A stretch of 64,000 bases of DNA from Rhodobiaceae bacterium (GTDB lineage Bacteria; Pseudomonadota; Alphaproteobacteria; Puniceispirillales; Puniceispirillaceae). The notes under the pieces are model-generated. The model was not told the DNA's origin and ran no database searches. It saw only the letters and a program-made list of their open reading frames with translations. Both the position numbers and the translations under genes were made by a program. Below are positions 25,976-55,151 of the stretch, piece after piece. The stretch spans positions 4,080-68,079 of the forward strand of contig JAAZUU010000001.1 in the NCBI GenBank assembly GCA_018624035.1. The letters run 5' to 3'. The number at the start of each line of letters is the position of its first letter. The stretch's first letter is position 1.

Positions 25976-26330
25976 GCCGCCACCCGGGCCAGGCCGGTCA
26001 CCACAACGCGCCGTTCCGCAATGTCCATCAGGCACCCGACAGCCCTTTTGTCGGGTTGTGACCTCTTGCCGAATCGTGAAACGACCTCAGACCGTCCCTG
26101 TCGAACCGGGACAGGGGGATGGATTGTGACGAGCGGAAGGGTCGTGGCAGGGGCCCGGGCCGTGCACAGGCTTGCGCGGCGTGGGGCTGTCACGGCAAAT
26201 TTCGTACCTCTTTGACACACAACACCCGAATGGTCTCTGCCATCTGGTCCCATGCGTTGCCGCGTTTCTTGCACCCTGTCCCCCGACCTTTATGCTTGAA
26301 TGCTAGTACACCAGATTGCAGGTCAGCACA

Positions 26331-37671: not shown

Positions 37672-39543
37672 CTAGCCCTTGCTGTTTGCAAGTGCCTTTT
37701 CCATCACCGCGGCAATGCGGTTGGTGAAATCGCGCGGATCGGCGATGGTCTCGCCCTCGGCGACAATAGCGCTGTCATAAAGCAGCCTCGCAAAGCTGTC
37801 CGAACCGTCGAATTCACCCGATTCCATGCGGCTGTTCAGCGCCTTGATCAGCGGGTGCTTGGCATTGACCTCGAGGATTTTCGGGCCACCATGGAAATCG
37901 GGATTGTGCATTCGCATCATCCGTTCCATCTGCGGGTCCATGCCGCTCTGGTCGGCGACCAGTCGGGCAAGACTCGTCTCCAGATTGGCCGAACTGCGCA
38001 CATCGGCGACATCACCGCCAAGCACATGTTTCATCTTCGCCATGAAGCTGTCGGACAGCACCGCCTCGGCCTTGTCCTCATCCTTGTCGGCCTCGCCGAC
38101 ATTCGAGATATCGACCTCGCCCCTGGTGATCGACTGGAAGGTCCTGCCATCGAATTCGGGCGTGCCGGCAAGCCAGAAATCATCGATCGGGTCGGTCAGC
38201 AACAGCACATCGATACCCTTGGCGCGGAAGGATTCCAGATGCGGGCTTGTCATCGCCAGATCGGCATTCTCGGCCGACAGGTAATAGATCATCTCCTGGC
38301 CGGCGGCGAATCCCTCGACATATTCCTTCAGCGTGACCATGCCGTCATTACGGGTCGAGCGGAACAGGCTGATATCAAGGATTTTGGCGCGGTTGGCGTC
38401 ATCCTCATACAGCCCTTCCTTGATCACCCGGCCCATGGCGTTCCACAGGCCCTCATACTCCTCGCGGCGCTTTTCCAGCGCCTTGCCGAACTCGCCAAGG
38501 ACGCGCTTGACGATCGCCTTATTGATCTTCGTTACAACCGGATTCTGCTGCAGCATCTCGCGGCTGACATTCAGATCGACATCCGGCGTGTCGATGACGC
38601 CGCGAAGAAAGCGCAGCCATTTCGGGACCAGCCCCTCGCAATTGTCGGTGATGAACACCCGATTGACATAGAGCTGCAGCCGCGAGCGCCGTTCCGGGTC
38701 GAACAGATCGAATGGCGCCATCGACGGGATGAAGACCAGATTGGTGAACTCGACCGCTCCTTCGGTTCGGTTGTGAAGCGTGGCGAAGGGCGTGTCATAG
38801 GCGGCGGCCACCGAGGCGTAGAAATTCTGATACTCCTCCTCGGAGATGTCTTTCGCCGGCCGGGTCCACAATGCCACGGCGCTGTTCAACCGTTCCGGAT
38901 CGGCCTTGTCCTGAAGCCACATGATCGGCTGTGCGATATGGTCCGAATATTTCTTCACCAGAAATTCGATCCGCTCGCGCTCGACATATTCCTTGGCATC
39001 CTTTTTAAGGTGCAGCGTGATGTCGGTGCCCACAGTATCGCGGCTGGCGCTGTCGATGGAAAATCCGGATGCGCCGTCACTGTGCCAGTGGCTGGCCTCG
39101 GCCGCGCCATGCGCGCGCGAGACAACATCGATCCGTTCCGCCACCATGAAAGCGGAATAGAAACCGACGCCGAACTGGCCGATCAGCTGGTCGGTCAGAT
39201 CGCCCCCATCCTTGCTGTCGCTCGCCGCTGCGGCGAACGCCTTGGTGCCGGAGCTCGCGATGGTGCCGAGCGTGTCCTTCATCTCGTCGGCGGTGAGGCC
39301 GATGCCATTGTCGCTGATGGTCAGGCTGCGCGCCTTGCTGTCGGCGCTGACGGTGATCTCGCCATCCAGCATCTCGGCCGCGTCGCCGGCGCTCAGCACG
39401 GCGAATTTGCGCTTGTTGATGGCGTCGGACGCGTTGGAGATCAATTCACGAAGGAAGATTTCCTTCTGTGAGTAGAGTGAATTGATGACGATATCGAGAA
39501 TTCTGCCTGTATCGGCCTCGAAATCGAATCTCTGGCTGGTCAT
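37672..39543 (-). CDS. htpG: Molecular chaperone HtpG (Hsp90)
   Basis: I use the ATG at comp(39541-39543), giving MTSQRFDFEADTGRILDIVINSLYSQKEIFLRELISNASDA, the classical Hsp90 N-terminus. About 623 aa. Confidence 0.9.
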   Translation of the reverse strand: MTSQRFDFEADTGRILDIVINSLYSQKEIFLRELISNASDAINKRKFAVLSAGDAAEMLDGEITVSADSKARSLTISDNGIGLTADEMKDTLGTIASSGTKAFAAAASDSKDGGDLTDQLIGQFGVGFYSAFMVAERIDVVSRAHGAAEASHWHSDGASGFSIDSASRDTVGTDITLHLKKDAKEYVERERIEFLVKKYSDHIAQPIMWLQDKADPERLNSAVALWTRPAKDISEEEYQNFYASVAAAYDTPFATLHNRTEGAVEFTNLVFIPSMAPFDLFDPERRSRLQLYVNRVFITDNCEGLVPKWLRFLRGVIDTPDVDLNVSREMLQQNPVVTKINKAIVKRVLGEFGKALEKRREEYEGLWNAMGRVIKEGLYEDDANRAKILDISLFRSTRNDGMVTLKEYVEGFAAGQEMIYYLSAENADLAMTSPHLESFRAKGIDVLLLTDPIDDFWLAGTPEFDGRTFQSITRGEVDISNVGEADKDEDKAEAVLSDSFMAKMKHVLGGDVADVRSSANLETSLARLVADQSGMDPQMERMMRMHNPDFHGGPKILEVNAKHPLIKALNSRMESGEFDGSDSFARLLYDSAIVAEGETIADPRDFTNRIAAVMEKALANSKG

Positions 39544-39658
39544 GCGGTGGCCCCCCACTTGATATGTCTGGAGCGCATTTAATTTTCGTGACGGCCGATT
39601 TCAAGATGATCGCGTTGCCTGAACCACCGGATCTCAGCGCCTGATGCAAATCTGGCGG

Positions 39659-40513
39659 CTAGTCCACAAAGGCCTTTTCAATGACAAGCGTGCCGGGCCT
39701 GGCGTTCGACCCTTCGGTAAAGCCCCCTGATTCCAGCGCGTCACGCATATCCCGCAGCATCGCCATCGATCCGCAGATCATCACCCGGTCGGTCGCCGGG
39801 TCGAGCGGCGCGCCGGCAATCGACTCAAGCGATCCGGTCTCAAGCAATGTTGTCAGCCTTCCGGTGCGCGCATGCGGCTGGCGGGTCGTGGCGTCAATCA
39901 ATTTCAGCCTGTTCGTGGCGAGATCGCCGACAAGCGGATCGCTGTATGTCGCCGTGACAACCTGTTGCCCGTAGGCCAGCTCGGCCGTCAACCGGCAGCC
40001 ATGCGCCAGAACAAGGCTTTCGAACTTCTCATAGCTTTCCGGATCGCGGATCACCGACGCGAAAGGCGCGATCCCGGTGCCGGTGCCAAACATCCACAGA
40101 TTGCGTCCCGGCAACAGCGCATCCAGCACCAGCGTGCCGGTGGCCTTGCGGCGCATCCAGATGGTGTCGCCAGGCTGAACACGCTGCAGATATTCGGTTA
40201 GCGGACCTGCGGGGACCTTGATCGAATAGAATTCCAGCGTGTCATCCCAGGATGGCGAGGCAATGGAATAGGCGCGAAAGACCGGCCGTGTGCCGGGCAG
40301 GCCAATCATGACGAATTCACCGGAGCGGAAGCGAAAGCTGGCTGGCCGGCTGATCCGGAAGCGGAACAGACGGTCAGTGTAATGCTCGACCTCGGTCACC
40401 GTTTCGGCATGGCAGCCAGAAGGGGTTTCGACAGGTGCCTGAAGGGGCGCCTGATGGTCGCTGTCATGTTCGCGGGCCGGCACCGCGATGCCCGTCGCCA
40501 TATGAACTGCCAT
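39659..40513 (-). CDS. fpr: Ferredoxin-NADP+ reductase (bacterial subclass I type)
   Basis: FAD/NAD-binding core HYTDRLFRFRISRP...RAYSIASP...MFGTGTGIAPF...EKAFVD. The ATG at 40513 has GGGGAA upstream. The longer track ORF (to 40597) would cover the operator-like boxes. Confidence 0.75.
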   Translation of the reverse strand: MAVHMATGIAVPAREHDSDHQAPLQAPVETPSGCHAETVTEVEHYTDRLFRFRISRPASFRFRSGEFVMIGLPGTRPVFRAYSIASPSWDDTLEFYSIKVPAGPLTEYLQRVQPGDTIWMRRKATGTLVLDALLPGRNLWMFGTGTGIAPFASVIRDPESYEKFESLVLAHGCRLTAELAYGQQVVTATYSDPLVGDLATNRLKLIDATTRQPHARTGRLTTLLETGSLESIAGAPLDPATDRVMICGSMAMLRDMRDALESGGFTEGSNARPGTLVIEKAFVD

Positions 40514-40561
40514 ATCGTCAGTTCCCCAATTTCGCCAGGGCCGCATCATACCGAAAACTCG

Positions 40562-40578
40562 TTCGTATACAAATGAAA
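40562..40578. promoter_or_regulatory. 17-nt operator-like box, site 1 (TTCGTATACAAATGAAA), upstream of fpr
   Basis: 15/17 identical to site 3 (51492-51508). The core TTnGTATACnAA is a 10/12 palindrome. It lies 49 nt upstream of the preferred fpr ATG. Confidence 0.5.
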
Positions 40579-40582
40579 GATG

Positions 40583-40599
40583 TTTGCATACAAACAATA
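40583..40599. promoter_or_regulatory. Operator-like box, site 1b (TTTGCATACAAACAATA), 21 bp from site 1
   Basis: The core TTTGCATACAAA differs from the site 1 core at 2 of 12 positions. The spacing equals two helical turns. Confidence 0.35.
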
Positions 40600-40677
40600 T
40601 TGTGGTGTCGGCTGTCGCTGGTGGGCAGCAGAACAGGCTGGTGATCGGTGGTGGTCCGGCCGCGCCAGATGACGGTG

Positions 40678-42423
40678 TCAGGCGCGGTTACGTTCGGCGC
40701 GGGTGGCGTCCTCGTCGATCGCCGGCACCTCGCCCTCGCTGATCACGACACCATATAGCTCGCGGGCCTGGGCGGCGCTGTATCGGCCGAGCCGGACATC
40801 CTCAAGGACCGCTTCCGGCGGCCGCTCGAACGGGTCGCCATAGCCGCCACCGCCGGGGGTGCGCACCCAGACCCGGTCGCCCGGGGCCAGCGCGATATCC
40901 TGTTCCTTCGAGAGATGAAGCGGAACATAGGGTTCACTATTCCGGATCACCACGACCTTGTTCACATCGCCATCAGCGCCACCAAGCGCGCCCTGGGGCC
41001 CAAACCGCCCATGATCCATCACGAAGCTGGCGCGGGCCTCGCCATTGCGAAGCTCGAGCTCGTAATCAAGGCCGAATCCGCCGCGATTCCTGCCGGCCCC
41101 GGCGGACCCTTCATGAAGTGCATAGTGATGATAGAGGACCGGAAAGGCCTGCTCCATGATCTCCACCGGCGGCGCTTTCGAGATGCCGATGGTCGAACAG
41201 CCATTGCTCAGCCCGTCGCCATCGGCGTTGCCGCCATAACCGCCGCCAGACAGCTGATACATAACGAAATCGCGGCCGCGTTCGGCATTGTGACCACCAA
41301 GCGCGAAATTGCCGCTGGTGCCGGCCGGCGCGGCGGTCACCCGGTCGGGAAGCGGCTGCACCAGCGCCGCGAACACCGCCTCGGCGATTCGCTGGCTGAC
41401 CTCGGCGGCACAGCCCGACACCGGCCGCGGATAATGCGCGTCAAGGAAAGTGCCCTCGGGCCGGATCACTTCCAGCGGTTCGAACGCGCCGGCGCTGATC
41501 GGCACTTCCGGGAAGATGTGGCGCATCGCCAGATAGACCGAGCTGAGGGTTGTCGCCAGAACCGAATTCATCGGCCCGCGGCAGGGCGGGCTGGACCCGC
41601 CGAAATCGAAGATCAGCCGGTCATCCCGGCGCGTGACCCGGAGCCTGATTTCCAGTGGCTCGTCAACAACACCGTCACTGTCGACATAGGCGACTGACTG
41701 CCAGCTTCCTGCCGGCATGTTCGAGATCAGCTGGCGCATCTGTGTGGCGGCGCGGCCGCGAAGCTCGGCAATGGCCTGCTCCACCGTGTCATCGCCGTAG
41801 CGGTCAAGGAGCAGGTCCAGCCTGTCGGCCCCGACCTCCAGCGCCGCAGCCTGGGCCTTCACATCGCCGATCCGCTGGTCGGCCACGCGGATGTTGGAAC
41901 AGATGATGGCATAGATCTCGCGGTCCATCTCTCCCTGCTTGAACAGCTTCACCGGCGGCAGGCGCAGCCCTTCCTGTTCGACCGCTGTCGCCGAGGCCGA
42001 GAACCCGCCCGGCACGGCGCCGCCGGTATCCGGCCAATGGCCGGTGTTGGACAGCCAGCACCACAGCCTGCCATGCCGGTAATAGGGCCGGACAAAACGC
42101 ACATCCATCAGATGCGTGCCGCCAAGATAGGGGTCGTTGACGATATAGATGTCGCCGGGTTCCGGCGGTGCTGCCTCGCCTTCATCGATCAGCCGGATCA
42201 GTTCGGCGGTGGAATATTGCATCGTGCCGACAAAAACCGGCAGGCCGCCGGCACCCTGGGCGATCAGCGCGCCATCGGCGGCGGCATAGATGCCGTCCGA
42301 CCGGTCATTCGCCTCGGCGATCACCGGCGAGAAGGCGGCGCGGGAGAAACTCAGATCCATCTCGTCACAGGCCTGCTGCAGCCCGGCCTGGATGACGCTG
42401 AGGGTGATGGGATCAAGACTCAT
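40678..42423 (-). CDS. hyuB: Hydantoinase B/oxoprolinase family protein (ATP-dependent cyclic-amide hydrolase, beta subunit)
   Basis: 581 aa: MSLDPITLSVIQAGLQQACDEMDLSF...IYIVNDPYLGGTHLMD, typical of HyuB. ATGA overlap with hyuA. Confidence 0.8.
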   Translation of the reverse strand: MSLDPITLSVIQAGLQQACDEMDLSFSRAAFSPVIAEANDRSDGIYAAADGALIAQGAGGLPVFVGTMQYSTAELIRLIDEGEAAPPEPGDIYIVNDPYLGGTHLMDVRFVRPYYRHGRLWCWLSNTGHWPDTGGAVPGGFSASATAVEQEGLRLPPVKLFKQGEMDREIYAIICSNIRVADQRIGDVKAQAAALEVGADRLDLLLDRYGDDTVEQAIAELRGRAATQMRQLISNMPAGSWQSVAYVDSDGVVDEPLEIRLRVTRRDDRLIFDFGGSSPPCRGPMNSVLATTLSSVYLAMRHIFPEVPISAGAFEPLEVIRPEGTFLDAHYPRPVSGCAAEVSQRIAEAVFAALVQPLPDRVTAAPAGTSGNFALGGHNAERGRDFVMYQLSGGGYGGNADGDGLSNGCSTIGISKAPPVEIMEQAFPVLYHHYALHEGSAGAGRNRGGFGLDYELELRNGEARASFVMDHGRFGPQGALGGADGDVNKVVVIRNSEPYVPLHLSKEQDIALAPGDRVWVRTPGGGGYGDPFERPPEAVLEDVRLGRYSAAQARELYGVVISEGEVPAIDEDATRAERNRA

Positions 42424-44564
42424 GACGCGCCTCCAGCACTGATCGGGCCAGCACTGATCGGGCCAGCACTGATCGGGCCGACGCTGATCAGAATGTTGCC
42501 GTCTTCATCGGAGCTGGCGCTGTCCTTTGGCATGATGAGGATCGTGCTGTCCATCTGTTCGAGAATGGCCGGCCCCTGCAGAGCCATATCGAGGGGCAGT
42601 TTCTCGCGCCGGTAGACAGGCGTGTCGCACCAGCCGTCACCGAACCAGACGCGGCGGGTGCCGGTCTGCGCTTCGGCCAGCGTCGGGGCGCGCCCGGAAT
42701 CATCGATCAGCCCGCCAAGATCGACCTCGGCGCGCCGTCCGGTGACCGTCGTGTTAACATTCACCACCTGCGCGCGGATTTCCGGCAGCCTGACCCGGAA
42801 CCTGTTGAAATAGACCTCCTCGAACCGCGCCTGGATCTCGCCGCGATCCGGCTGGCCATCATCAAGCGGCACCTGCAGAAGATGCGTCTGCCCGCTGAAC
42901 TGCATGTCGAGCGAGTGCTGGACGCCGATCTCCGAGATGTCCACCGGTTCCTGCCGGATGAGCGCCGTTCCCTCGTCACGTTGTGCGGCGAGGATGTCGG
43001 TCAGCTGCGTCATGTCGAGAGTCGCCAGCGGCGCGTTGACCGTCTGTACGAAATCATGGCGAAGATCGGCGACAATGCAGCCCAGTGCGTTGGTGATGCC
43101 GGGGCGGGCGGGCACAAGAACCTCGGGGATGCCAAGCTCGCCGGCCAGCGCCGAGGCATGAAGCGGGCCGGCCCCGCCAAAGGCGAAAAGCGAGAAATCA
43201 CGCGGGTCCTCACCAAGAGAGACCGACACCATGCGGGTCGCGCCGGCCATGCGGGTGGTGGCGATACGAAGCACCGCCTCGGCGGCGCTCTCGGCATCGA
43301 TTCCCAGCCTGTCGCCAAGCTCGGTCTGGAAGATCTGACGGATGCGCGCCAGATCGACATTGCCCGGAACCGATTTCAGCTTGTCGACATCAAGTCTGCC
43401 AAGCAGCATGTTGGCATCGGAAATGGTCGGCTTTGTCCCGCCGCGGCCATAACAGATCGGGCCCGGGTTTGCACCGGCGCTCTGCGGCCCGACCTCAAGA
43501 AGGCCGGCCTCGTTGACCCGTGCGATCGATCCGCCACCGGCGCCGATGGTGCGGACATCGACCATCGGCACATGGATCGGCATCGCATATTCAAGCTCGA
43601 TCTCGTGCGAGACCGACGGCTCGCTTCCCCGGATCAGCGCGACATCGGTCGAGGTGCCGCCCATGTCATAGGTGATCAGGTTGGGCCGTCCGGCGCGGCG
43701 GCCGGTATAGGCGGCGGCGATCACGCCGGAGGCCGGGCCCGACATCACCGTCTTCGCGGCCTCGCGGACGACGCGGCTTGCCGAAACCGTGCCGCCATTG
43801 CCGTTCATCACCAGAAGCTCGCCACCATAGCCGCCTTCACCAAGCTCGTTCACCAGCCGCCCGACATAGCGTTCCAGAAGCGGTTGCACCGAGGCGTTGA
43901 CGGCGGCGGTGACGCCGCGCTCGAACTCGCGGCTTTCCGAAAGCAGCGAATGGCCGGTCGTGATGTAGTCATTCGGCCAGAAGGTGGCGAGGATTTCGGC
44001 TGCCCTTGTCTCGTGCTGCGGATTGGCATAGGCGTGAAGGAAATGCACCACCACCGATTCAACACCGGCGGCAAGCAATTGCTCACCCGCAAGACGCACC
44101 GCATTCTCATCAAGCGGCGTCACCACACGGCCGGCATAATCAAGCCGTTCCGGCACCTCGAGGCGCAGGTCACGCGGAATGATCGGCGTGAAATCGCCCT
44201 TCATGCCATAGGGCTGTGGCCGGGTACGGCGGCCAAGCTCGAGCACGTCGCGGAAACCTGCGGTGGTGATCAGCCCGGTGCGGCTGAGCTTGCGTTCGAG
44301 CACGGCGTTGGTCGTCGTCGTGGTGCCGTGGATTACAAGGGCGACATCACGAAGTACCGTGCCGGCCTCCTCCAGCGCTGTCATCACCCCGAAGGCCTGG
44401 TTGTCGATCGTGCTGGCCACCTTTGACAGGTGAACGGTGCCGGTCTTCTGATCGAGCCTGACGAGATCGGTGAATGTGCCGCCGACATCGACGCCGATCA
44501 GGTTGCCCCCGGTCAGCTTGCCTACGGTCAGCTTCTTTTGATGGGCCTTGTCGCGCGCCGCCAT
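42420..44564 (-). CDS. hyuA: Hydantoinase A/oxoprolinase family protein (alpha subunit) with a repeat-encoded C-terminal tail
   Basis: IGVDVGGTFTDLV...TYDMGGTSTDV are actin-like ATPase motifs. I use the internal ATG at 44564 (GGGGAAAG upstream). The C-terminus is ...LISVG(PISAG)x3GAS. Confidence 0.8.
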   Translation of the reverse strand: MAARDKAHQKKLTVGKLTGGNLIGVDVGGTFTDLVRLDQKTGTVHLSKVASTIDNQAFGVMTALEEAGTVLRDVALVIHGTTTTTNAVLERKLSRTGLITTAGFRDVLELGRRTRPQPYGMKGDFTPIIPRDLRLEVPERLDYAGRVVTPLDENAVRLAGEQLLAAGVESVVVHFLHAYANPQHETRAAEILATFWPNDYITTGHSLLSESREFERGVTAAVNASVQPLLERYVGRLVNELGEGGYGGELLVMNGNGGTVSASRVVREAAKTVMSGPASGVIAAAYTGRRAGRPNLITYDMGGTSTDVALIRGSEPSVSHEIELEYAMPIHVPMVDVRTIGAGGGSIARVNEAGLLEVGPQSAGANPGPICYGRGGTKPTISDANMLLGRLDVDKLKSVPGNVDLARIRQIFQTELGDRLGIDAESAAEAVLRIATTRMAGATRMVSVSLGEDPRDFSLFAFGGAGPLHASALAGELGIPEVLVPARPGITNALGCIVADLRHDFVQTVNAPLATLDMTQLTDILAAQRDEGTALIRQEPVDISEIGVQHSLDMQFSGQTHLLQVPLDDGQPDRGEIQARFEEVYFNRFRVRLPEIRAQVVNVNTTVTGRRAEVDLGGLIDDSGRAPTLAEAQTGTRRVWFGDGWCDTPVYRREKLPLDMALQGPAILEQMDSTILIMPKDSASSDEDGNILISVGPISAGPISAGPISAGGAS
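42433..42492. repeat. 15-bp tandem repeat x4 (CCAGCACTGATCGGG; three perfect copies plus one degenerate), in frame in the 3' end of hyuA
   Basis: Read directly. It encodes LISVG-PISAG-PISAG-PISAG just before the hyuA stop / hyuB start overlap. Confidence 0.9.
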
Positions 44565-44586
44565 CAGCCGTCTTTCCCCAGAATTG

Positions 44587-44603
44587 TTGGTATGCGAATG
44601 AGC
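44587..44603. promoter_or_regulatory. Operator-like box, site 2 (TTGGTATGCGAATGAGC), in the hyuA / membrane-protein divergent spacer
   Basis: 13/16 identical to site 3 over TTnGTATnCGAATGA. Confidence 0.4.
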
Positions 44604-44610
44604 GCCGAAT

Positions 44611-44627
44611 ATTGACAAATTGTCAAT
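44611..44627. promoter_or_regulatory. Perfect 17-bp palindrome ATTGACAA-A-TTGTCAAT
   Basis: 8-bp arms around a single central base, 8 nt from operator-like site 2, in the hyuA / membrane-protein divergent spacer. Confidence 0.4.
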
Positions 44628-44676
44628 TGGGTTTCCAAATCTCCGCATGCTGTCGATATCCTCAGATTATGGGTTA

Positions 44677-46110
44677 ATGGCGCGTGGCAGGCGGCTTGTC
44701 GCCACCGCGATGATCTGTGCTGTGTCGCTGCTGCCGCTGCCGGCGGCGGCGCATGCGACAGGCCAGAGCTTCATCGCCCTGCTGCCGACCGGCCCCTATA
44801 TGGCGGTTGGCGTCATCATCGTCGCGCTCAGCATCATGCTGCTGTGGTTTCTGCCGCACCGGTCGGTGGCACGGCTGCTGCCAAGCCGTGATCTGGGCCG
44901 GATCGCGGCGCCGCCCTTGCTGCGCTCGCTGTCCAGTTTTCTGTTTTTCCTGCTATTGTGCTGGCTTCTGTCACGCGGGATCTCGGGATCGCGCGATCCG
45001 CTGGAAAATCCGCTGGTGCTGGGCTTCTGGGTGGTGTTCTGGATGGCCTCGCCGATGGTGCAGGGGTTTGTGTTCGATCTCTGGGGCTGGATGTCGCCAT
45101 GGCGCTGGCTTGCCGGACCGCTCGCCGCGGTGGTGGCGCGCCCGCCGCTGGCATTGCCGCACCGTCTTGGCGTCTGGCCGGCGGTTCTGCTGCTGCTGGT
45201 GTTCTCGATGTTCACCCTTGCCGACCCGGCGCCGGATGATCCGGCGCGTCTGGCGACGGTTGGCGTCACCTATATGGCGGTGACCATTGCCGGCATGGTT
45301 CTGTGCGGCCCGGGACGATGGCTTCGCCAGGTCGAGATCTTTTCGGTCGTGATGGCGCATTTCGGGCGGCTGGCGCCGCTGGCAAGGCGAGGCAGGCGGG
45401 TGCGCGTCGGCTGGCCCGGATGGCAACTGGCGCATGGTGCGCGGGCCTCGCGCGGCATCCCGGTGTTCATTCTGATGCTTCTTGGCACCGGATCATTCGA
45501 CGGTTTCAACGAAACCTTTGTCTGGCTTGATATGATCGGGGTCAACCCGCTGGCCTTTCCGGGCAGGTCGGCCGTGGTGATGCCGGTCATCGCCGGCCTG
45601 ATCGCCGCCAACCTGATCCTTGTGGGGCTGTTCACGGCGCTTCTCCATGCCGGTGATCGGGCGGTTGCCGCGCCCCGGGACCAGACGCCGGAACAGGGAG
45701 CATCGGCGCGGAACAGGTATATTCTGTCGGTCTTTGCGCCCACCATCCTGCCAATCGCGCTTGCCTATCACACCGCGCATTATTTCCCCTCGCTTCTGGT
45801 CGATGGCCAGTATGTGCTGGTCGCGCTGAATGATCCGCTGGGGCAGGGCGCCAACCTGCTGGGGCTTGACGGGTTCCATGTCACGACCGGCTTTTTCAAG
45901 CACCGGGAATCGATGCGGGTCATCTGGCTGAGCCAGGCCGCCATCATTGTTTTCGGGCATGTTCTGGCGGTCATTCTCGCGCACGCCAACGCGGTGCAGG
46001 CCTATGGCGGGATTCGCCGCGCCTTCACCGCCGGCATGCCGCTGGCGGTGTTCATGATTCTCTATACATGGCTTGGCCTGTGGCTGCTGGCGGCACCGAA
46101 GGGCGGATGA
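44677..46110 (+). CDS. Polytopic membrane protein of unknown function (signal peptide, then about 12 hydrophobic segments)
   Basis: I use the ATG at 44677, giving MARGRRLVATAMICAVSLLPLPAAAHA|TGQSF. His-containing motifs AYHTAHYFPS and GHVLAVILAH lie in predicted membrane segments. I do not recognise a family. Confidence 0.5.
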   Translation: MARGRRLVATAMICAVSLLPLPAAAHATGQSFIALLPTGPYMAVGVIIVALSIMLLWFLPHRSVARLLPSRDLGRIAAPPLLRSLSSFLFFLLLCWLLSRGISGSRDPLENPLVLGFWVVFWMASPMVQGFVFDLWGWMSPWRWLAGPLAAVVARPPLALPHRLGVWPAVLLLLVFSMFTLADPAPDDPARLATVGVTYMAVTIAGMVLCGPGRWLRQVEIFSVVMAHFGRLAPLARRGRRVRVGWPGWQLAHGARASRGIPVFILMLLGTGSFDGFNETFVWLDMIGVNPLAFPGRSAVVMPVIAGLIAANLILVGLFTALLHAGDRAVAAPRDQTPEQGASARNRYILSVFAPTILPIALAYHTAHYFPSLLVDGQYVLVALNDPLGQGANLLGLDGFHVTTGFFKHRESMRVIWLSQAAIIVFGHVLAVILAHANAVQAYGGIRRAFTAGMPLAVFMILYTWLGLWLLAAPKGG

Positions 46111-46217
46111 AGTTTTGTCTGGACAAGACGTGTCGCTGGCCACAAGCTTGGCGCAGGGATCGAGATGAACAATCGGCATCGAAGCCGGGCTCGACTTCAA
46201 CTGCCAGGGAGATAGCC

Positions 46218-47570
46218 ATGACCAGAACAACTGAAAAACCTGCAGCCGAAAATGCGGTGACCAACGAGGCGGTGACCAATGAGGCGGTAAAACGTCCGAA
46301 CCGTCGCACGGCCCTGAAGACACTTGCCGCGACCACGGCGCTTGCTGCTGCCGCCAGCAGCATGCCGCTGTTTGGGCGCTACGGACAGGTGCAGAGCTCA
46401 GAGCCGATCAAGATCGGATTTCAGGTCCACCGCACCGGCATCGGTGCCGCCTATGGCCGCTGGTATGACCGCACCACCAAGGCTGCCGTCAAAAAGATCA
46501 ATGATGAGGGTGGTATCAACGGCCGCCCGGTCGAGATTGTCGCCGAGGATGACGGCACCGACCCCAAGCGGGGTGCCGAGGTTGTCGAGAAGATGGCGAC
46601 ACAACATGGATGCGATATCGCTTTCGGCACGCTGTTCAGCCATGTCGTCATCGGGTCCGCGCCGCGTGCCGGCGAGCTGAAAATCCCCTATTTCGTCGTG
46701 TCCGAGGGGCACCATGTCGCCAGCGGCATGCTGAACCGCTACACGCTCCAGCCGGGGATCACCGATGTGAAGAGCCAGGTCCAGGCGATGGCCCCGTTCG
46801 TCAACAGCACGCTTGGCAAGAAGGTCACGATGATCTATCCGGATTTCGCCTTCGGTCATGATCACCGCGATTATTTCTCGGCCGCGGTCGCGGCACAGGG
46901 CGGCGATGTGGTCGCCAAGATCGCGATTCCGCCGACCGAGACGTCCTTCACCAAATATTTCCCGAAGATCCCGCGCAACACCGATGTCATCTATCACGTC
47001 ATGGTCGGGCCGGCGGTGCTGACCTTCGTCAAGGAAATGGGCGAATTCTTCGGCAATTCGCGCCCCGAGATCTTCGGCTTCATCGACTCGCTCGAGGCGG
47101 TCGATCTTGCCAGTCCGGGCCTGGAGTTCCTCGAGGGCACCTATTTCTGGGAAGGCAATCCGCGCTATGCGCAGGCCAACCAGTCGGATTATGACAAGGC
47201 CTATCGCAAGGCTGTCGGCGTCGATGCCAATGGCGCCTCGGTATCCGATCCGAAGGATGTCTCGACCTATGCGCATATGTTCGGCTGCTGGGAGACGCTT
47301 CATATCGTCAAGGCCGGTATGGAGGCGTCGGGATATGCCGGTGCCGGTGATCGCGCCAAGCTGATCGAGGCGGTGGAATCGATGACCTCGATGCCGCATT
47401 CCTACGCGCACCCGCAGGGCGCGAAGGAGTTCAACGGCAAGACGCACCAGACCTTCGGCCATCAATATATCACCAAGGTCGAGAATGGCAGGCTGGTCCT
47501 CGCGCACACGACCTCGATCGAGGATACCTACTATCCCGATGAGACGGACTACACCAAGCAGTCCTTCTGA
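46218..47570 (+). CDS. Liv/Amide-type ABC transporter substrate-binding protein with a twin-arginine signal
   Basis: The ATG at 46218 follows AGGGAG. MTRTTEKPAAEN(AVTNE)x2AVKRPNRRTALKTLAATTALAAAASS is a Tat-like signal. The body is a Leu/Ile/Val-binding-protein fold (IKIGFQVHRTG...). Confidence 0.75.
   Translation: MTRTTEKPAAENAVTNEAVTNEAVKRPNRRTALKTLAATTALAAAASSMPLFGRYGQVQSSEPIKIGFQVHRTGIGAAYGRWYDRTTKAAVKKINDEGGINGRPVEIVAEDDGTDPKRGAEVVEKMATQHGCDIAFGTLFSHVVIGSAPRAGELKIPYFVVSEGHHVASGMLNRYTLQPGITDVKSQVQAMAPFVNSTLGKKVTMIYPDFAFGHDHRDYFSAAVAAQGGDVVAKIAIPPTETSFTKYFPKIPRNTDVIYHVMVGPAVLTFVKEMGEFFGNSRPEIFGFIDSLEAVDLASPGLEFLEGTYFWEGNPRYAQANQSDYDKAYRKAVGVDANGASVSDPKDVSTYAHMFGCWETLHIVKAGMEASGYAGAGDRAKLIEAVESMTSMPHSYAHPQGAKEFNGKTHQTFGHQYITKVENGRLVLAHTTSIEDTYYPDETDYTKQSF
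46254..46289. repeat. 15-bp tandem repeat x2.4 (GCGGTGACCAAyGAG), in frame in the n-region of the binding-protein Tat signal
   Basis: Read directly. It encodes AVTNE-AVTNE-AV upstream of the RR motif. Confidence 0.85.
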
Positions 47571-47668
47571 TTTTCGGGCTGACCTTCGGGCGCGGCGGGC
47601 GGTGATGCCGGTCGCGCCCCATTCAATTATTCCGGTCTGTTGAGGGGGAGTGGCGTTCGCCACAACTC

Positions 47669-48595
47669 ATGGAACTTGGTCCCTATCTGATCCTCGGTTT
47701 GCTTGAAGGGCTTGTCACGGCGGCGGTGCTGTCGCTGATGGCGCTTGGCCTGTCGCTGGTCTTCGGCGTCATGCGCGTCGTGAATGTCGCGCATGGCGAA
47801 TTCTTCATGGTCGGCGCGGTGCTTGCCTGGATCATCGCGAACGCCGTTGATTCGCATCCGGCGGTGAATTTTCTGGCTGCCCTGTTGCTGGCACCTCCGG
47901 CGACAGCGTTGCTGGCGGCGATCGCCGACAGGCTGGTGCTGAAACGGGTCGCCTATGACCCCGAGCGCACCATCGTCGCGACGATTGGCCTTCTCTATAT
48001 CATCCAGCAGGTCACGCTGATGACCTATGGCCCCGATGCCCGCCCGGTCGAGGCGCCTTTCAACCACCGCCTGTCGATCCCGTTTGTCGAATGGACCGAA
48101 AGCGGGATGGCGCTCTACTGGCCCTGGGGGCTTGGCACCACCAGCTACAAGCTTGCCGTGATCGGCGCGGCGGTGCTGCTTCTCGGGGCGATCTGGCTGT
48201 TGATGACGCGCACGCGGATTGGCCTGGTGATGCGGGCGACACAGCTCGACAGCGAGATGGCCAGGGCCTTCGCCGTTCCGGTGGACCGTGTCTATGCCGC
48301 GGTGTTCGGCCTTGGCGCCGGCCTCGCGGCGCTGGCGGGTGTTCTGATCGTGCCGATCCAGCAGGCGCATTACCTGATGGGGCATGACCCGCTGCTGCTG
48401 TCCTTCATCGTTGTCATCATCGGCGGGCTCGGCAGCCTTCCCGGCACCGTGGTGGCGGCACTTCTGATCGGCATCAGCGACGGCATGATCTCGGTCTTCT
48501 TCACGCCGACCCTTGCCAAGATCATCGCCACGCTCGGTGTTGCCTTCGTCCTGATTTTCCGCCCGCAGGGGCTGTTCGGGAGGAAAGGGCTGTGA
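47669..48595 (+). CDS. Branched-chain amino acid-type ABC permease (LivH-like)
   Basis: 308 aa: LILGLLEGLVTAAVLSLMALGLSLVFGVMRVVNVAHGEF. Confidence 0.8.
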   Translation: MELGPYLILGLLEGLVTAAVLSLMALGLSLVFGVMRVVNVAHGEFFMVGAVLAWIIANAVDSHPAVNFLAALLLAPPATALLAAIADRLVLKRVAYDPERTIVATIGLLYIIQQVTLMTYGPDARPVEAPFNHRLSIPFVEWTESGMALYWPWGLGTTSYKLAVIGAAVLLLGAIWLLMTRTRIGLVMRATQLDSEMARAFAVPVDRVYAAVFGLGAGLAALAGVLIVPIQQAHYLMGHDPLLLSFIVVIIGGLGSLPGTVVAALLIGISDGMISVFFTPTLAKIIATLGVAFVLIFRPQGLFGRKGL

Positions 48596-49551
48596 GCATG
48601 TTCCTCGGCAGCAATCTTCGCAAGTCATGGACGCTGCATATCGGCGTGATCATCCTGCTGTTCGCGTTGCAATTCATTCTGCCGGCCTATCATCATGGCA
48701 ATCTGGCGCGGATCATGGTGCTGGCCTGCTACGCCATGGGCTACAACATCCTGTTCGGCTATACCGGCCTGCTCAGCCTCGGTCACGCGCTGTTTTTCGC
48801 CGCCGGCATGTATGGCATGTCGCTGACCGTGCAGCATCTTGGATGGAGCGCCGGTCCGGCGCTGCTGGCTGGGCTGGCGGCAGGCTTTGCGGTGGCGCTT
48901 GCCATCGGGCTTCTGGCGCTGCGTACCGCCGGTGTCGCCTTCATGATCGTGACGCTGATGTTCGCCCAGGCAGGCTATCTCGCGGCGCTCTATTTCGGCG
49001 AATATACCCGTGGTGACGAGGGGTTCGTGATCCAGCAATCCTTCCGCCAGCTTGCCGGGGTCAATCTTGCCGATCCCACCAATCGCTATTTCGCCGCGCT
49101 GGCGCTGTTCGCGATCTGTGTGGTGGTCTCGTTGCGGGTCGTCCAGGCCGGATTCGGCCGGGTGCTTGTCGCCATTCGCGAGAATGAGGAACGCACCCGC
49201 ATGCTTGGCTACGACATCCACCGTCACAAGCTTGCCGCCGTTGTCCTGTCGGGAACAATGTCGGCCGCCGCCGGCGCCGCCTACGGGTTGCTGTTCGGCT
49301 ATGCCGGGGCGACGTTCGCGTCGGTCCAGTATTCGATCTTTCCGCTTCTCTGGGTGCTTCTCGGCGGGGCCGGCACGATCCTCGGGCCGTTTGTCGGCAC
49401 CCTGTTCATGTTCTATCTGATCGACCTGTCGAGCGAGCTGACAACCGCCTACATGCTGATCGCCGGCTTCGCACTCGTGATGCTGACGCTGTTCGCGCCG
49501 CAGGGCCTTGTCGGCGAGTTGCGCCGTCGCGCGCTGAGGTGGCTGCCATGA
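48592..49551 (+). CDS. Branched-chain amino acid-type ABC permease (LivM-like)
   Basis: 319 aa with a GTG start in a GTGA overlap: YNILFGYTGLLSLGHALFFAAGMY. Confidence 0.8.
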   Translation: MSMFLGSNLRKSWTLHIGVIILLFALQFILPAYHHGNLARIMVLACYAMGYNILFGYTGLLSLGHALFFAAGMYGMSLTVQHLGWSAGPALLAGLAAGFAVALAIGLLALRTAGVAFMIVTLMFAQAGYLAALYFGEYTRGDEGFVIQQSFRQLAGVNLADPTNRYFAALALFAICVVVSLRVVQAGFGRVLVAIRENEERTRMLGYDIHRHKLAAVVLSGTMSAAAGAAYGLLFGYAGATFASVQYSIFPLLWVLLGGAGTILGPFVGTLFMFYLIDLSSELTTAYMLIAGFALVMLTLFAPQGLVGELRRRALRWLP

Positions 49552-50261
49552 CGCTGTTGTCAACACGCGGCCTGAGCCGTAATTTCGGGGGCCTGAAGGC
49601 CGTCGACAATGTCGATTTCGATCTTCCCGCCGGCGAGGTGCGCGCCCTGATCGGCCCGAATGGCGCCGGCAAGACAACCTTTGTCGGCATGCTGTCGGGC
49701 CGGATTCCGGCGAGTGCCGGAACTGTGAGTTTCGACGGCCGGGACGTCACCATGATGCCGGCGCACCGGCGGATCCGAGCCGGCATGGCCTATACCTTCC
49801 AGATCACCTCGGTGTTCAGCCGGCTGCCGGTGGCGGAAAATGTCGCTTTGGCGCTGCGCTGGCGGACCGGGGACGATTTGGCGGCAACAGACCGCCAAGT
49901 TGCCGAGGCGCTGGATCGGGTGGGAATCGCCGACCGTGCCGACCAGCTTGCCGGTGACCTCAGCTACGGGCATCAGCGCCTCCTGGAAATCGCCATGGGG
50001 CTGAGCCAGCAGCCGCGCCTGCTGATCCTCGACGAGCCGACGCAGGGTCTCGCCGACAGCGAGATTGTCGATTTCGTGGCGCTGATCCGCGGTCTGGCCG
50101 GCGACATGACGATTCTGCTGATCGAGCACAATATCAACGTTGTGATGCAGACGGCCGACGCCATCACCGTTCTCAATTTCGGATCGGTCCTTGCCAGCGG
50201 CACGCCGTCTGAAATCAGGAACAACGCGGCGGTGCAGGCCGCCTATCTGGGGACAGGCTGA
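49548..50261 (+). CDS. ABC transporter ATP-binding protein (LivG-like)
   Basis: The ATG at 49548 is in an ATGA overlap with the LivM-like stop. GPNGAGKTT, LSYGHQRLLEIA, LILDEP. Confidence 0.85.
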   Translation: MTLLSTRGLSRNFGGLKAVDNVDFDLPAGEVRALIGPNGAGKTTFVGMLSGRIPASAGTVSFDGRDVTMMPAHRRIRAGMAYTFQITSVFSRLPVAENVALALRWRTGDDLAATDRQVAEALDRVGIADRADQLAGDLSYGHQRLLEIAMGLSQQPRLLILDEPTQGLADSEIVDFVALIRGLAGDMTILLIEHNINVVMQTADAITVLNFGSVLASGTPSEIRNNAAVQAAYLGTG

Positions 50262-50956
50262 TGCTGAATGTCGAAAATCTGTCCTCGGGATATGGCGATA
50301 TCAGGGTACTTCATGACGTGTCCTTCACTGTCGAGGGCGGCGAGATCGTCTGCCTTCTGGGGCGCAACGGCGCCGGCAAGACCACCTGCCTGAAAACCAT
50401 CATGGGGCTGTTGCGGGCGCGGTCAGGCTCTGTCACATGCGGTGATGTGGAGGTGTCGCGCCTGCCGGCGAACGAGGTGCCGCGCCATGGCATCGGTTAT
50501 ATCCCGCAGGGGCGGCGCCTGTTCGCCGAACTGACGGTGGCCGAGAATCTCGAGATCGGGCTGATGGTGCGTGGCAAGGGACGTGAGACGCGTGACCGCG
50601 TGCTGGAGATGTTCCCGCGCCTTGGCGAAAGGTTGAACCAGCGTGCCGATACCCTTTCGGGCGGTGAGCAGCAGATGCTGGCCACCGGTCGGGCGCTGTG
50701 TATCGAGCCGTCGGTGCTGTTGCTGGATGAGCCGACCGAGGGGCTGCAGCCCTCGATGATCGAACAGATCAGACAGGCGGTCACAGCGCTTCGGGACCGC
50801 GGGGTGGCCATCCTTCTGGTTGAACAGCGGGTCGATGCGGTGCTGTCGATCGCCAACCGTGTGGTGTTTCTCGAGAATGGCCGCAGCCACCCGGCCATCG
50901 ATGCCGGGGAGCTGAAGACAAACCCCAACCTTCTGCATCGTTTTATCGGGGTGTAA
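50261..50956 (+). CDS. ABC transporter ATP-binding protein (LivF-like)
   Basis: 231 aa, TGATG junction: GRNGAGKTT, LSGGEQQMLATGRAL, LLLDEP. Confidence 0.85.
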   Translation: MLNVENLSSGYGDIRVLHDVSFTVEGGEIVCLLGRNGAGKTTCLKTIMGLLRARSGSVTCGDVEVSRLPANEVPRHGIGYIPQGRRLFAELTVAENLEIGLMVRGKGRETRDRVLEMFPRLGERLNQRADTLSGGEQQMLATGRALCIEPSVLLLDEPTEGLQPSMIEQIRQAVTALRDRGVAILLVEQRVDAVLSIANRVVFLENGRSHPAIDAGELKTNPNLLHRFIGV

Positions 50957-50986
50957 GCCGCTGCGACGTCCCGCCGGACGAGCCGG

Positions 50987-51424
50987 TCAGATGAGCCGGT
51001 CCAGAAGCTTGATCAGCCGGTCCTGTTCCTGTTTGTCAAGCGGTGCCAGCGTCCGGCGCGTCACCTCGGACGCCTTGGCGACAAGCTCATCATGCAGATC
51101 GCGTCCCGCCTCGGTCGGAGTCAGCATCAGCCGCCGGCGGTCGCCGACAAGCGGCGATGCATCGACAAGGCCGCGGGCGCGCAGCCGGTCGACAACACCC
51201 TTGATTGTCGCGACATCCATCGAGGTCAGTCGCCCGAGCTCGTTCTGCGAGGTCTGACCAAGCTCGCAAAGTTTTGCCAGGGCGGCGAACTGCGTTGGGG
51301 TCATTTCGGGGATCAGTGACGAAAAAATCGCGATATGGCGCTGCATCACGCGGCGCATGATGAAGCCGACCTGCCGTTCCAGAAGATATGTGTTGCGAGC
51401 TGTCACGCTGTGTCCTCCGGGCAT
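50987..51424 (-). CDS. MarR-family transcriptional regulator (NicR-like by context)
   Basis: LLERQVGFIMRRV...MTPTQFAALAKLCELGQTSQNELGRLTSMDVATIKGVVDRLRARGLV is a winged-helix MarR core. I prefer the ATG at 51424 because the codons between 51424 and the ATG at 51481 are rich in A/T-ending rare codons. The start is uncertain. Confidence 0.7.
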   Translation of the reverse strand: MPGGHSVTARNTYLLERQVGFIMRRVMQRHIAIFSSLIPEMTPTQFAALAKLCELGQTSQNELGRLTSMDVATIKGVVDRLRARGLVDASPLVGDRRRLMLTPTEAGRDLHDELVAKASEVTRRTLAPLDKQEQDRLIKLLDRLI

Positions 51425-51491
51425 GCGACGACATGGCGTCGACTGCGTGCCTTTGTCAGTTGACACTATCAGGACCCCCATGCACAGTCTA

Positions 51492-51508
51492 TTTGTATAC
51501 GAATGAAA
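51492..51508. promoter_or_regulatory. Operator-like box, site 3 (TTTGTATACGAATGAAA), in the marR / Mo-hydroxylase divergent spacer
   Basis: It lies between the MarR gene and the FAD-subunit gene, 27 nt before the 51535 ATG. It is an AT-rich island in a GC-rich context. Confidence 0.5.
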
Positions 51509-51534
51509 TTGGCAATGAATTCAACCGCGAAACC

Positions 51535-52380
51535 ATGAATTATCTGCGACCTCATCTTCTCGAAGACGCGTTGCAATGGCTGGCGACGAAGCGGCCGCTT
51601 GTCATGGCCGGCTGTACAGATATCTACCCGACCACACAGGCACCGTCGCTTGACGGGCCGCTTCTCGACATTACCGCCCTTGAGGGCCTGCGCGGCATCA
51701 CTGTGGCGGACGGGTGGCGGCGCTTTGGCGCGGCGACAACCTGGGATGATGTGCTGCAATCCAACCTGCCACCTTCCTATCGCATGCTGAAACAGGCGGC
51801 GCGCGAGATCGGCGCGGTGCAGATTCAGGTCAGCGGCACCATTGGCGGCAATCTGTGTACCGCCTCGCCAGCGGCCGACAGCGTGCCATGCCTGATGGCA
51901 CTTGATGCCGAAGTTGAACTTGCCTCGGTCGGCGGCAGTCGACGCCTGCCGCTCGCCGACTTCCTGACCGGGCCGCGGCAGACGGCGTTGCGGCCAGATG
52001 AACTTCTTGTCGCCATCCATGTGCCGCGGCATGCCGAGGCCGGCCGGTCGGGCTTTGCCAAGCTTGGCGCGCGCCGCTATCTGGTGATTTCGATCGCCAT
52101 GGCCGCCGTGCGGCTGGAGGTCGAGGATGGGCGCATTACAGGCGCGGCGGTGTCGGTTGGTGCCTGTGCGCCGGTCGCGTCCCGCCAGACCGGCCTGGAA
52201 TCACGCCTTGTCGGACGCCGGCCTGACGACATTGACGCGCTGGCCACCGAGGCGATGCTGATGATCGCCGACAGCCTCTCGCCGATTGATGATGTACGGG
52301 CCTCGGCCGGCTATCGGCGGCAGGCGGCGGCCGAACTTGCCTGGCGGAGCATCCGGTCACTTTGCAGGGAGGCGGCGTGA
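51535..52380 (+). CDS. Molybdenum hydroxylase FAD-binding (medium, CoxM/XdhB-like) subunit
   Basis: The ATG at 51535 gives MNYLRPHLLEDALQWLATKRPLVMAGCTDIYP...GGNLCTASPAADS, the FAD_binding_5 pattern. Confidence 0.75.
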   Translation: MNYLRPHLLEDALQWLATKRPLVMAGCTDIYPTTQAPSLDGPLLDITALEGLRGITVADGWRRFGAATTWDDVLQSNLPPSYRMLKQAAREIGAVQIQVSGTIGGNLCTASPAADSVPCLMALDAEVELASVGGSRRLPLADFLTGPRQTALRPDELLVAIHVPRHAEAGRSGFAKLGARRYLVISIAMAAVRLEVEDGRITGAAVSVGACAPVASRQTGLESRLVGRRPDDIDALATEAMLMIADSLSPIDDVRASAGYRRQAAAELAWRSIRSLCREAA

Positions 52381-55139: not shown

Positions 55140-55151
55140 GGGAGAGCGAGC

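Follow-up and report, generated by a model that had tools for sequence, protein, structure and literature searches.

A candidate 18-bp operator of a MarR-family regulator in a nicotinate gene cluster of a Puniceispirillaceae bacterium

A nicotinate gene cluster and its four boxes

The locus described here lies in a 64,000-nucleotide stretch of DNA (the window) from a Rhodobiaceae bacterium assembly (GCA_018624035.1, contig JAAZUU010000001.1) and comprises genes for a ferredoxin-NADP reductase-like flavoprotein (fpr), the enzyme pair HyuAB, a polytopic membrane protein, a Liv-type ABC transporter, a MarR-family regulator, a molybdenum (Mo) hydroxylase with its operon partners and a nicotinamidase (pncA), all of which are listed in Table 1. 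Four copies of a similar box occur in the intergenic spacers of this cluster. An earlier note on the same DNA had proposed that one such box ties fpr, hyuAB, the membrane protein and Liv genes and the Mo-hydroxylase operon to the MarR protein encoded among them, and these boxes, together with the regulator that probably binds them, are the subject of this report.

The assignment of the cluster to nicotinate catabolism is sound, because PncA scores above the curated cut-off of its NCBIfam model (NF008623, 209 bits versus 174), because the 490-residue protein of the Mo-hydroxylase operon has thousands of homologues of which those 75-88% identical to it are named 6-hydroxynicotinate reductase (Hnr) in NCBI and UniRef, and because the cluster is of a type already described from Bradyrhizobiaceae, where nicotinate dehydrogenase, 6-hydroxynicotinate reductase, enamidase, an ABC transporter and two conserved unknown proteins act via 1,4,5,6-tetrahydro-6-oxonicotinate (PMC3511419). 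The Mo-hydroxylase has the FAD, 2Fe-2S and MoCo domains (Pfam) and, together with Hnr, makes up the pair by which the tetrahydro-6-oxonicotinate pathway is recognized; its specificity for nicotinate is predicted. The regulator is a 145-residue protein encoded on the minus strand exactly where the earlier note had placed it, and it matches the MarR family (PF01047) at 3.2e-9, above the cut-off. Its comparison with the PDB gave 33 MarR-family matches, the closest being 2NNN (4e-32, over the full length), and it is also homologous to BpsR (6PCP/6PCO; for 6PCP, E = 2.1e-22, with an alignment of query residues 13-143 to residues 15-147 of the chain), the 6-hydroxynicotinate-responsive MarR-family repressor of the nic genes of Bordetella (PMC6837509). 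Thus, the nicotinate context that had been assumed for this regulator is borne out by the Hnr-named homologues, the PncA score and the homology to BpsR.

All four boxes were found at the coordinates reported earlier, namely TTCGTATACAAATGAAA at 40562-40578 upstream of fpr, TTTGCATACAAA at 40583-40594 (21 bp from the 40562 site, start to start), TTGGTATGCGAATGAGC at 44587-44603 and TTTGTATACGAATGAAA at 51492-51508, and the 40562 and 51492 sites are indeed identical at 15 of 17 positions. When the 17-mer was searched with up to three mismatches, only these two sites were recovered (4 matches on the two strands together, where 0.06 were expected), a count that was reached in none of 100 shuffles. 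The 12-mer core with up to two mismatches occurred five times in the window against an expectation of 4.05, which has no significance by itself, and the two weaker copies could therefore not be validated from the window alone. They were instead scored with a weight matrix of 16 nt, symmetrised and trained on 36 unique sites of other genomes, from which the window and its near-identical relatives had been excluded. The four boxes were the top four matches of the window, scoring 25.8 (51492), 25.4 (40583), 25.0 (40562) and 19.5 bits (44587), while the fifth-best match reached 4.9 bits and the best matches of 200 simulated windows had a mean of 10.5 and a 95th percentile of 15.6 bits. Thus, all four boxes are genuine, including the weaker copies. 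The matrix found no further box in the window, with nothing above 5 bits before the binding-protein gene of the transporter, before pncA, which is without a box of its own here, or before a phosphoribosyltransferase/BtpA-like gene pair downstream of it. Besides the 12-bp core, the matrix is informative at positions -2 to 0 and 13 to 15, and what is conserved is a palindrome of 18 bp, T-Y-R-TTnGTATACnAA-Y-R-A, consisting of the core and three flanking bases on each side, a dyad length that fits a winged-helix dimer. The earlier note had described the core as nearly palindromic and the box as 17 nt long; the unit measures 18 rather than 17 bp, and from the 'ATGAAA' tail of the noted 17-mer only 'TGA' belongs to the element, the rest of the A-rich tail lying outside it.

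A scan of species-representative genomes for HyuA yielded 80 loci (L001-L080, 1.26 Mb), the nearest of which come from metagenome-assembled genomes (MAGs) of the SAR116/Puniceispirillaceae type and the rest from Rhodobacterales, Mesorhizobium and other Hyphomicrobiales, Granulosicoccus and others. With at most one mismatch, TTNGTATACNAA occurred at 63 sites in this DNA against 6.5 +/- 2.6 in first-order Markov simulations, an approximately ten-fold enrichment; some 50 of these sites are found immediately before hyuA, fpr or pncA or in the spacer between marR and the FAD-subunit gene, and the number remaining is close to the chance expectation. Footprinting of about 40 orthologous spacers likewise showed the box to be conserved, with copies at corresponding promoters in SAR116-type, Rhodobacterales, Hyphomicrobiales and Granulosicoccus genomes. 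Around the box the flanks diverge; the box itself is constant, and in many genera the spacers of marR and hyuA also keep a TTGACA element 22-26 nt upstream of it. The marR-spacer box follows its TTGACA by ~26 nt in L005, L007, L010, L015-L018, L024, L028, L044, L078, L084 and L085, and the hyuA promoter architecture with its box is kept in L001-L011 and L033. In related loci fpr usually has two boxes 21-37 bp apart, and the two-box layout seen here is kept in L003, L005, L006, L008-L011 and L033. The hyuA promoters of Rhodobacterales have degenerate TTyG-YRYR-CnAA forms in which the centre drifts (TTCGCACACAAA, TTTGCACACGAA) but still alternates between pyrimidine and purine, and in which the arms remain TTnG/CnAA. 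Orthologues of pncA have boxes upstream in L035, L040 and L066, and in Mesorhizobium-type loci pncA, divergent from the FAD-subunit gene, is accompanied by a box. Three divergent fpr-hyuA spacers (L021, L049 and L056) contain a variant palindrome, TTTGCGTGCAAA, with three core changes where Mesorhizobium-type loci have TTAGTATACAAA, and this may represent an operator that has diverged together with its regulator. A megablast search of the 12.8-kb region against plasmids returned only fragments of 70-77% identity and no syntenic relative.

Positions of the boxes and the regulator that accompanies them

Every box lies close to a predicted promoter, and its position relative to the conserved TTGACA is consistent across spacers; the promoters themselves are predictions from consensus and conservation. 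The rightward promoter of the Mo-hydroxylase operon is predicted as TTGACA (51460-65), 17 nt, a weak -10 element CACAGT and 3 nt before the box, which would roughly span positions -3 to +9, while the same box fills the spacer between the -35 and -10 elements of a promoter-like site that faces marR and was found by consensus scan. On the minus strand, the hyuA promoter has its TTGACA at 44626-21, followed after 22 nt by a box that covers the predicted -10/+1 region, a layout that recurs in ~25 other genomes. At fpr, the predicted minus-strand promoter has TATGAT (40550-40545) as its -10 element and a -35 element that the proximal box overlaps, and the distal box lies 21 bp, or two helical turns, further upstream on the same face of the helix, which suggests that the pair could be bound cooperatively. 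This placement favours a repressor, which is how both BpsR and Pseudomonas putida NicR, a MarR-like regulator of the nic genes, are described (PMC6837509). The spacer between hyuA and the membrane-protein gene additionally contains ATTGACAAATTGTCAAT, a perfect 8+1+8 palindrome probably made of two back-to-back -35 elements of divergent promoters, with TTGACA at 44612-17 on the plus strand pointing toward the membrane-protein gene and at 44626-21 on the minus strand pointing toward hyuA. The palindrome is kept in all SAR116-type relatives, also as TTGACTTTTTGTCAA. We examined ATTGACAAATTGTCAAT (44611-27) and TTGTCAGTTGACA, the latter in the marR spacer, as possible further operators of MarR and rejected both, since they are predicted TTGACA -35 elements and relatives conserve them in that form.

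We next consider which regulator the box follows. Plasmids and chromids were searched by tblastn, which provided independent annotated loci that are absent from matrix training. On plasmid P3 of Sulfitobacter mediterraneus (L082) the same cluster occurs with an enamidase gene instead of hyuAB and has boxes for the binding protein (20.1 bits), the FAD subunit (24.8), the enamidase (24.5) and fpr (27.5). Fuscovulum (L084) has one long operon with boxes in the marR spacer (20.4 bits) and before the binding-protein gene (17.7 bits), Pleomorphomonas (L081) has boxes upstream of an Hnr-hyuAB-nicR operon, and Pannonibacter (L085) has a classical nicAB/nicC/nicX-type cluster with boxes at nicC (26.7 bits) and in the nicA-marR spacer (17.5 bits). 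The remaining loci, from Rhizobium, Phyllobacterium and Shinella (L083, L089 and L090), have two boxes upstream of a transporter/cysteine-hydrolase/marR operon. In total, 7/7 annotated replicons carrying the window MarR clade had at least two sites of at least 15 bits. Cultured bacteria with both the clade and the boxes include Sulfitobacter mediterraneus SC1-11, Fuscovulum ytuae YMD61 and Pannonibacter phragmitetus. In contrast, none of five nic loci with a BpsR-clade regulator (Paraburkholderia, Cupriavidus, Azospirillum, Pantoea and Pseudomonas) had a box, the best site scoring 6.8 bits (7/7 versus 0/5, Fisher p = 0.0013, all 12 loci outside matrix training). The two clades also differ in their recognition helix, which is MD(A/V)ATIKGVVDRL for the box-associated clade and IDQATVRGVIERL for that of BpsR. 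Given this distribution, and because no transcription factor other than MarR is shared by all annotated loci with boxes, the box follows this MarR clade rather than the target genes. Short of experiment, this co-occurrence is the strongest support for the window MarR being the protein that would bind the boxes.

The operon of L083, L089 and L090 is an observation in its own right. Here marR is the last gene of a PotD-type ABC transporter/cysteine-hydrolase operon (L083:4865-14780, L089:6824-14405, L090:4146-16777), the two boxes before the operon are ~210 bp apart, and the flanking genes encode trehalase-family and GH3 glycosidases and nicAB-like proteins. Such an operon might serve to import and hydrolyse a glycosylated derivative of nicotinate or nicotinamide.

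The explanation that best accounts for these results, and one we regard as probable, is that the four boxes are operators of the local MarR, which represses the nicotinate regulon. In the mechanism we propose, a MarR dimer would bind the 18-bp T-Y-R-TTnGTATACnAA-Y-R-A element and, when no inducer is present, would block RNA polymerase at the marR/Mo-hydroxylase, hyuAB and fpr promoters, with the operator in the marR spacer shutting off both of the divergent, overlapping promoters there, that of the Mo-hydroxylase operon and that of marR itself. MarR would be released from the DNA by an intermediate of the pathway acting as inducer, with 6-hydroxynicotinate (or nicotinate) the likeliest candidate. 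The regulon foreseen by the earlier note is supported for fpr, hyuAB and the Mo-hydroxylase operon, for which footprinting, the ten-fold enrichment, promoter overlap and the clade distribution agree. It does not extend so readily to the membrane protein and Liv transporter, as, seen from the promoter facing the membrane-protein gene, the 44587 box precedes the -35 element (44612-17), and a matrix scan of the 108-bp gap before the Liv binding-protein gene found no box; control of this operon by MarR is no more than a possibility in this genome. In Sulfitobacter and Fuscovulum, where the box stands directly upstream of the binding-protein gene, the Liv transporter is a regulon member.

Several points weigh against this reading. 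Binding, repression and the identity of the inducer are all inferred. The proposed promoters have weak -10 elements, and only one of them was recovered by the consensus scan. Within the 80 hyuA loci, marR and the box are associated (16/16 versus 20/52, p = 5e-6), and we have given this association little weight because it is partly circular, the matrix having been trained on some of these loci, and because the loci without marR are often truncated; 20 loci have box-like sites and no marR in the examined DNA, most of them being truncated contigs or limited to a flank of at most 10 kb. A residue of BpsR that contacts 6-hydroxynicotinate, His23, is replaced by Phe or Tyr throughout the clade of the window MarR, and the ligand could therefore differ from 6-hydroxynicotinate. 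No usable operator of BpsR or NicR was found in the accessible literature, whether by regulator name or by the string TTGTATACAA, which retrieved Gateway cloning sites only. Lastly, the GT-AT-AC core (TTGTATACAA) with its T/A-rich arms resembles the operators of some GntR-family regulators.

These points can be read in other ways, of which the one that survives best, though we consider it unlikely, is that MarR binds the boxes as an activator or dual regulator, or that its ligand is nicotinate, nicotinamide or tetrahydro-6-oxonicotinate. Promoter elements that are weak and unmapped would allow for this, as would the loss of His23 from the BpsR-type pocket and the placement of two boxes upstream of a -35 element (the fpr-distal box and, seen from the opposite promoter, the hyuA box), but most boxes overlap a -35 element, spacer, -10 element or +1 position in many genera, which is the classical position of a repressor, both BpsR and P. 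putida NicR are described as repressors of nic genes (PMC6837509), and three of the four ligand contacts are kept. It is less probable still that the boxes are real and bound by another regulator encoded elsewhere, such as one of the GntR family, with the local MarR recognizing a different site. The window does encode a GntR/FCD regulator (25322-26035, minus strand), its only one of the GntR family, and some box-bearing loci have no marR within range; yet this gntR gene is 15 kb away at the head of a sugar-type ABC transporter and oxidoreductase operon with no TTnGTATACnAA box upstream (~1-2 bits), a GntR gene stands beside the boxes in 0/7 annotated loci (L090 has one ~17 kb off, with only a 9.1-bit site near it), and MarR is the sole regulator in common, the box vanishing where the MarR clade switches to BpsR despite the same nic targets. 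That the boxes are chance AT-rich promoter sequence or an RNA element of 5' leaders is very improbable, for although all copies lie in AT-rich spacers, GTATAC contains the -10-like TATAC and the 12-mer core is not enriched in the window, the dyad symmetry reaches 18 bp, the enrichment over Markov simulations is ten-fold, the centre changes to CACA, CGTA or CATA between fixed arms as a -10 element would not tolerate, the boxes are paired and vary in position relative to the promoter, and the region has no Rfam match and three leader folds no better than shuffles (z = +0.87, +0.38 and -1.39).

Table 1. Genes, candidate operators and predicted promoter elements of the cluster (window coordinates)
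Feature	Position	Strand	Basis or score
htpG	37672-39558	-	Pfam
fpr, ferredoxin-NADP reductase-like flavoprotein; predicted regulon member	39659-40513	-	Pfam FAD_binding_6 and NAD_binding_1
Candidate operator, fpr-proximal	40559..40576, core 40562-40573 (TTTGTATACGAA on minus strand)		25.0 bits
Candidate operator, fpr-distal	40580..40597, core 40583-40594 (TTTGTATGCAAA on minus strand)		25.4 bits
hyuB; predicted regulon member	40678-42423	-	Pfam
hyuA; predicted regulon member	42420-44564	-	Pfam
Candidate operator, hyuA	44584..44601, core 44587-44598 (TTCGCATACCAA on minus strand)		19.5 bits
Back-to-back -35 elements, ATTGACAAATTGTCAAT	44611..44627		conserved in L001-L011 and L033
Polytopic membrane protein; possible regulon member	44647-46110	+	strongly hydrophobic translation
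Liv-type ABC transporter; possible regulon member	46219-50956	+	Pfam
Liv binding protein	46219-47570	+	Pfam
Liv permeases	47669-49551	+	Pfam
Liv ATPases	49539-50956	+	Pfam
marR, MarR-family regulator; proposed box-binding repressor	50987-51424 (ATG at 51424)	-	Pfam MarR
TTGACA, inferred -35 of Mo-hydroxylase operon promoter	51460..51465	+	conserved ~26 nt before box in orthologous spacers
Promoter-like site facing marR: -35 TTGCCA, 18-nt spacer, -10 TAGACT	51486..51515	-	consensus match only
Candidate operator, marR/FAD-subunit spacer	51489..51506, core TTTGTATACGAA 51492-51503		25.8 bits
Nicotinate operon	51535-58135	+	Pfam, NCBIfam, homologue names, annotation of L082 and L084
FAD subunit of Mo-hydroxylase	51535-52380	+	Pfam
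Fused 2Fe-2S/Mo subunit	52362-55139	+	Pfam
6-hydroxynicotinate reductase (Hnr), 490 aa	55152-56624	+	homologue names; no Pfam match
UPF0280 protein	56608-57561	+	NCBIfam
AA_synth-family protein (open reading frame)	57416-58135	+	Pfam
pncA, nicotinamidase, isochorismatase family	58275-58871	+	Pfam; NCBIfam NF008623

Proposed roles of HyuAB, Fpr and the neighbouring genes

From the gene content, the pathway would begin with PncA, converting nicotinamide to nicotinate, and the Mo-hydroxylase, converting nicotinate to 6-hydroxynicotinate, after which Hnr would reduce 6-hydroxynicotinate with electrons from Fpr, the route running via 1,4,5,6-tetrahydro-6-oxonicotinate, whose lactam ring HyuAB would open in place of an enamidase. 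By Pfam, hyuA and hyuB encode an ATP-dependent hydantoinase/oxoprolinase/caprolactamase-type pair, the nearest NCBIfam models being those of the caprolactamase CapA/CapB, both matched below cut-off. The match of Fpr to the NCBIfam ferredoxin-NADP reductase model is also below cut-off. Our hypothesis that HyuAB opens the tetrahydro-6-oxonicotinate ring at the expense of ATP, and that Fpr feeds the reductase, draws upon several observations. In many distant genomes, hyuAB is syntenic with the Mo-hydroxylase, Hnr, UPF0280 and AA_synth genes, with which it has the operator in common. This conserved neighbourhood is also a link of fpr and hyuAB to the nicotinate genes, so the box is not the only sequence evidence for that link, contrary to what had been claimed. 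A tblastn search with the Sulfitobacter amidohydrolase (L082:14414-15580), a full-length enamidase orthologue (2VUN, 1.8e-105), retrieved no enamidase homologue from the window or from any of the hyuA loci, which reach at most 10 kb to either side, and L082, the one enamidase cluster examined, is without hyuAB, the enamidase gene there sharing a two-box spacer with fpr. The ring-opening role proposed for HyuAB is an economical reading of this synteny, the common operator, the absence of enamidase from hyuAB loci and the absence of hyuAB from the enamidase cluster; the contrast between the two enzymes comes from one case and from flanks of at most 10 kb. Enamidase and hyuAB thus look mutually exclusive, and both are accompanied by boxes and adjoin fpr. 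No relevant paper was found in a literature search for links between HyuAB or oxoprolinase-type enzymes and nicotinate, or for nicotinate catabolism in SAR116 bacteria or roseobacters.

Some of the neighbouring genes deserve mention. In a betaproteobacterial MAG (L080, ~5440-5620), a frame with a 4Fe-4S ferredoxin-like motif, IDCGVCEPECPVNAIVPD, lies just upstream of hyuA and adjoins fpr and the AA_synth gene, and its product may carry electrons from Fpr to the reductase. In both the window and L003, htpG is directly downstream of fpr, and since L004 lacks fpr and has htpG directly after hyuB, fpr is a dispensable or mobile module at that position. In many genomes the gene for the membrane protein, of ~480 residues, keeps its place between hyuA and that of the Liv-type binding protein, and in Sulfitobacter and Fuscovulum the protein is annotated as 'hypothetical protein'; it matched no family in Pfam or NCBIfam and may be an accessory to the nicotinate transporter. 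The Liv-type binding protein begins with a long N-terminal leader (window 46219-46330) in which NRRTALKTLAATTALAAAASS looks like a twin-arginine export signal. The minus strand just beyond the 3' side of pncA has a phosphoribosyltransferase-domain gene and a weakly BtpA-like gene (59546-60903), neither with a box.

Taken as a whole, a wider proposal, to which we give slightly less than even chances, is that HyuAB is an ATP-dependent tetrahydro-6-oxonicotinate lactam hydrolase that has replaced the non-orthologous enamidase in marine and soil alphaproteobacteria, that Fpr is the dedicated electron supplier of Hnr, and that the regulator belongs to a nicotinate-sensing MarR lineage that includes 2NNN and has an 18-bp operator of its own. 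If true, this operator could predict regulons of vitamin-B3 salvage and catabolism in SAR116 bacteria, roseobacters and rhizobia. The boxes themselves provide a defined operator model for an uncharacterised, probably nicotinate-responsive MarR clade that is widespread in abundant marine alphaproteobacteria (SAR116, roseobacters) and in rhizobia. Regulon membership and synteny further point to ring opening as the likely role of HyuAB, proteins now named 'hydantoinase/oxoprolinase' and sometimes mis-called acetophenone carboxylase, and to Fpr as a likely electron donor, and make the membrane protein, UPF0280 and AA_synth proteins candidates for the pathway. No description of this operator or regulon was found in the searchable literature, curated regulon databases lying outside the search.

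Comparison with known clusters and regulators

The cluster differs from those of Eubacterium barkeri, Azorhizobium caulinodans and Bradyrhizobiaceae (PMC3511419) in lacking an enamidase gene, in having the HyuAB pair in its place and in including a dedicated ferredoxin-NADP reductase gene in the regulon. Among regulators, the closest PDB entry, 2NNN ('probable transcriptional regulator'), shares with the window clade a Phe at the position of His23 and the SQNQLGRLTAMDAATIKGVVERL helix, and the entry itself gives neither a function nor a DNA site.

The window MarR and BpsR are homologous over 131 residues and are both encoded inside a nicotinate catabolic cluster. BpsR contacts 6-hydroxynicotinate through Tyr15, His23, Arg26 and His32 (PMC6837509), and three of these four residues are kept in the window MarR (Y13, R24 and H30), while His23 corresponds to Phe21. 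By analogy, the window MarR would be expected to work like BpsR, as a dimeric repressor released by a pathway intermediate. The two differ in recognition helix and operator, the five BpsR-clade loci being without the TTnGTATACnAA box, and in pathway, that of the window running via tetrahydro-6-oxonicotinate and that of the BpsR targets via 2,5-dihydroxypyridine. As it shares neither helix nor operator with BpsR, the window MarR is best placed in a sister clade of BpsR rather than regarded as BpsR itself. NicR of P. putida KT2440 is similarly a MarR-type repressor that acts upon several nicotinate-catabolic promoters from within its cluster, and the Pleomorphomonas homologue has been labelled 'NicR' by Prokka. 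The P. putida protein is set apart by its description as lacking the BpsR-type contacts (PMC6837509), three of which the window MarR keeps. Overall, the mechanism proposed for the window is a conventional one, with a MarR repressor encoded in a catabolic cluster and palindromic operators placed over several of its promoters, like those of BpsR and NicR.

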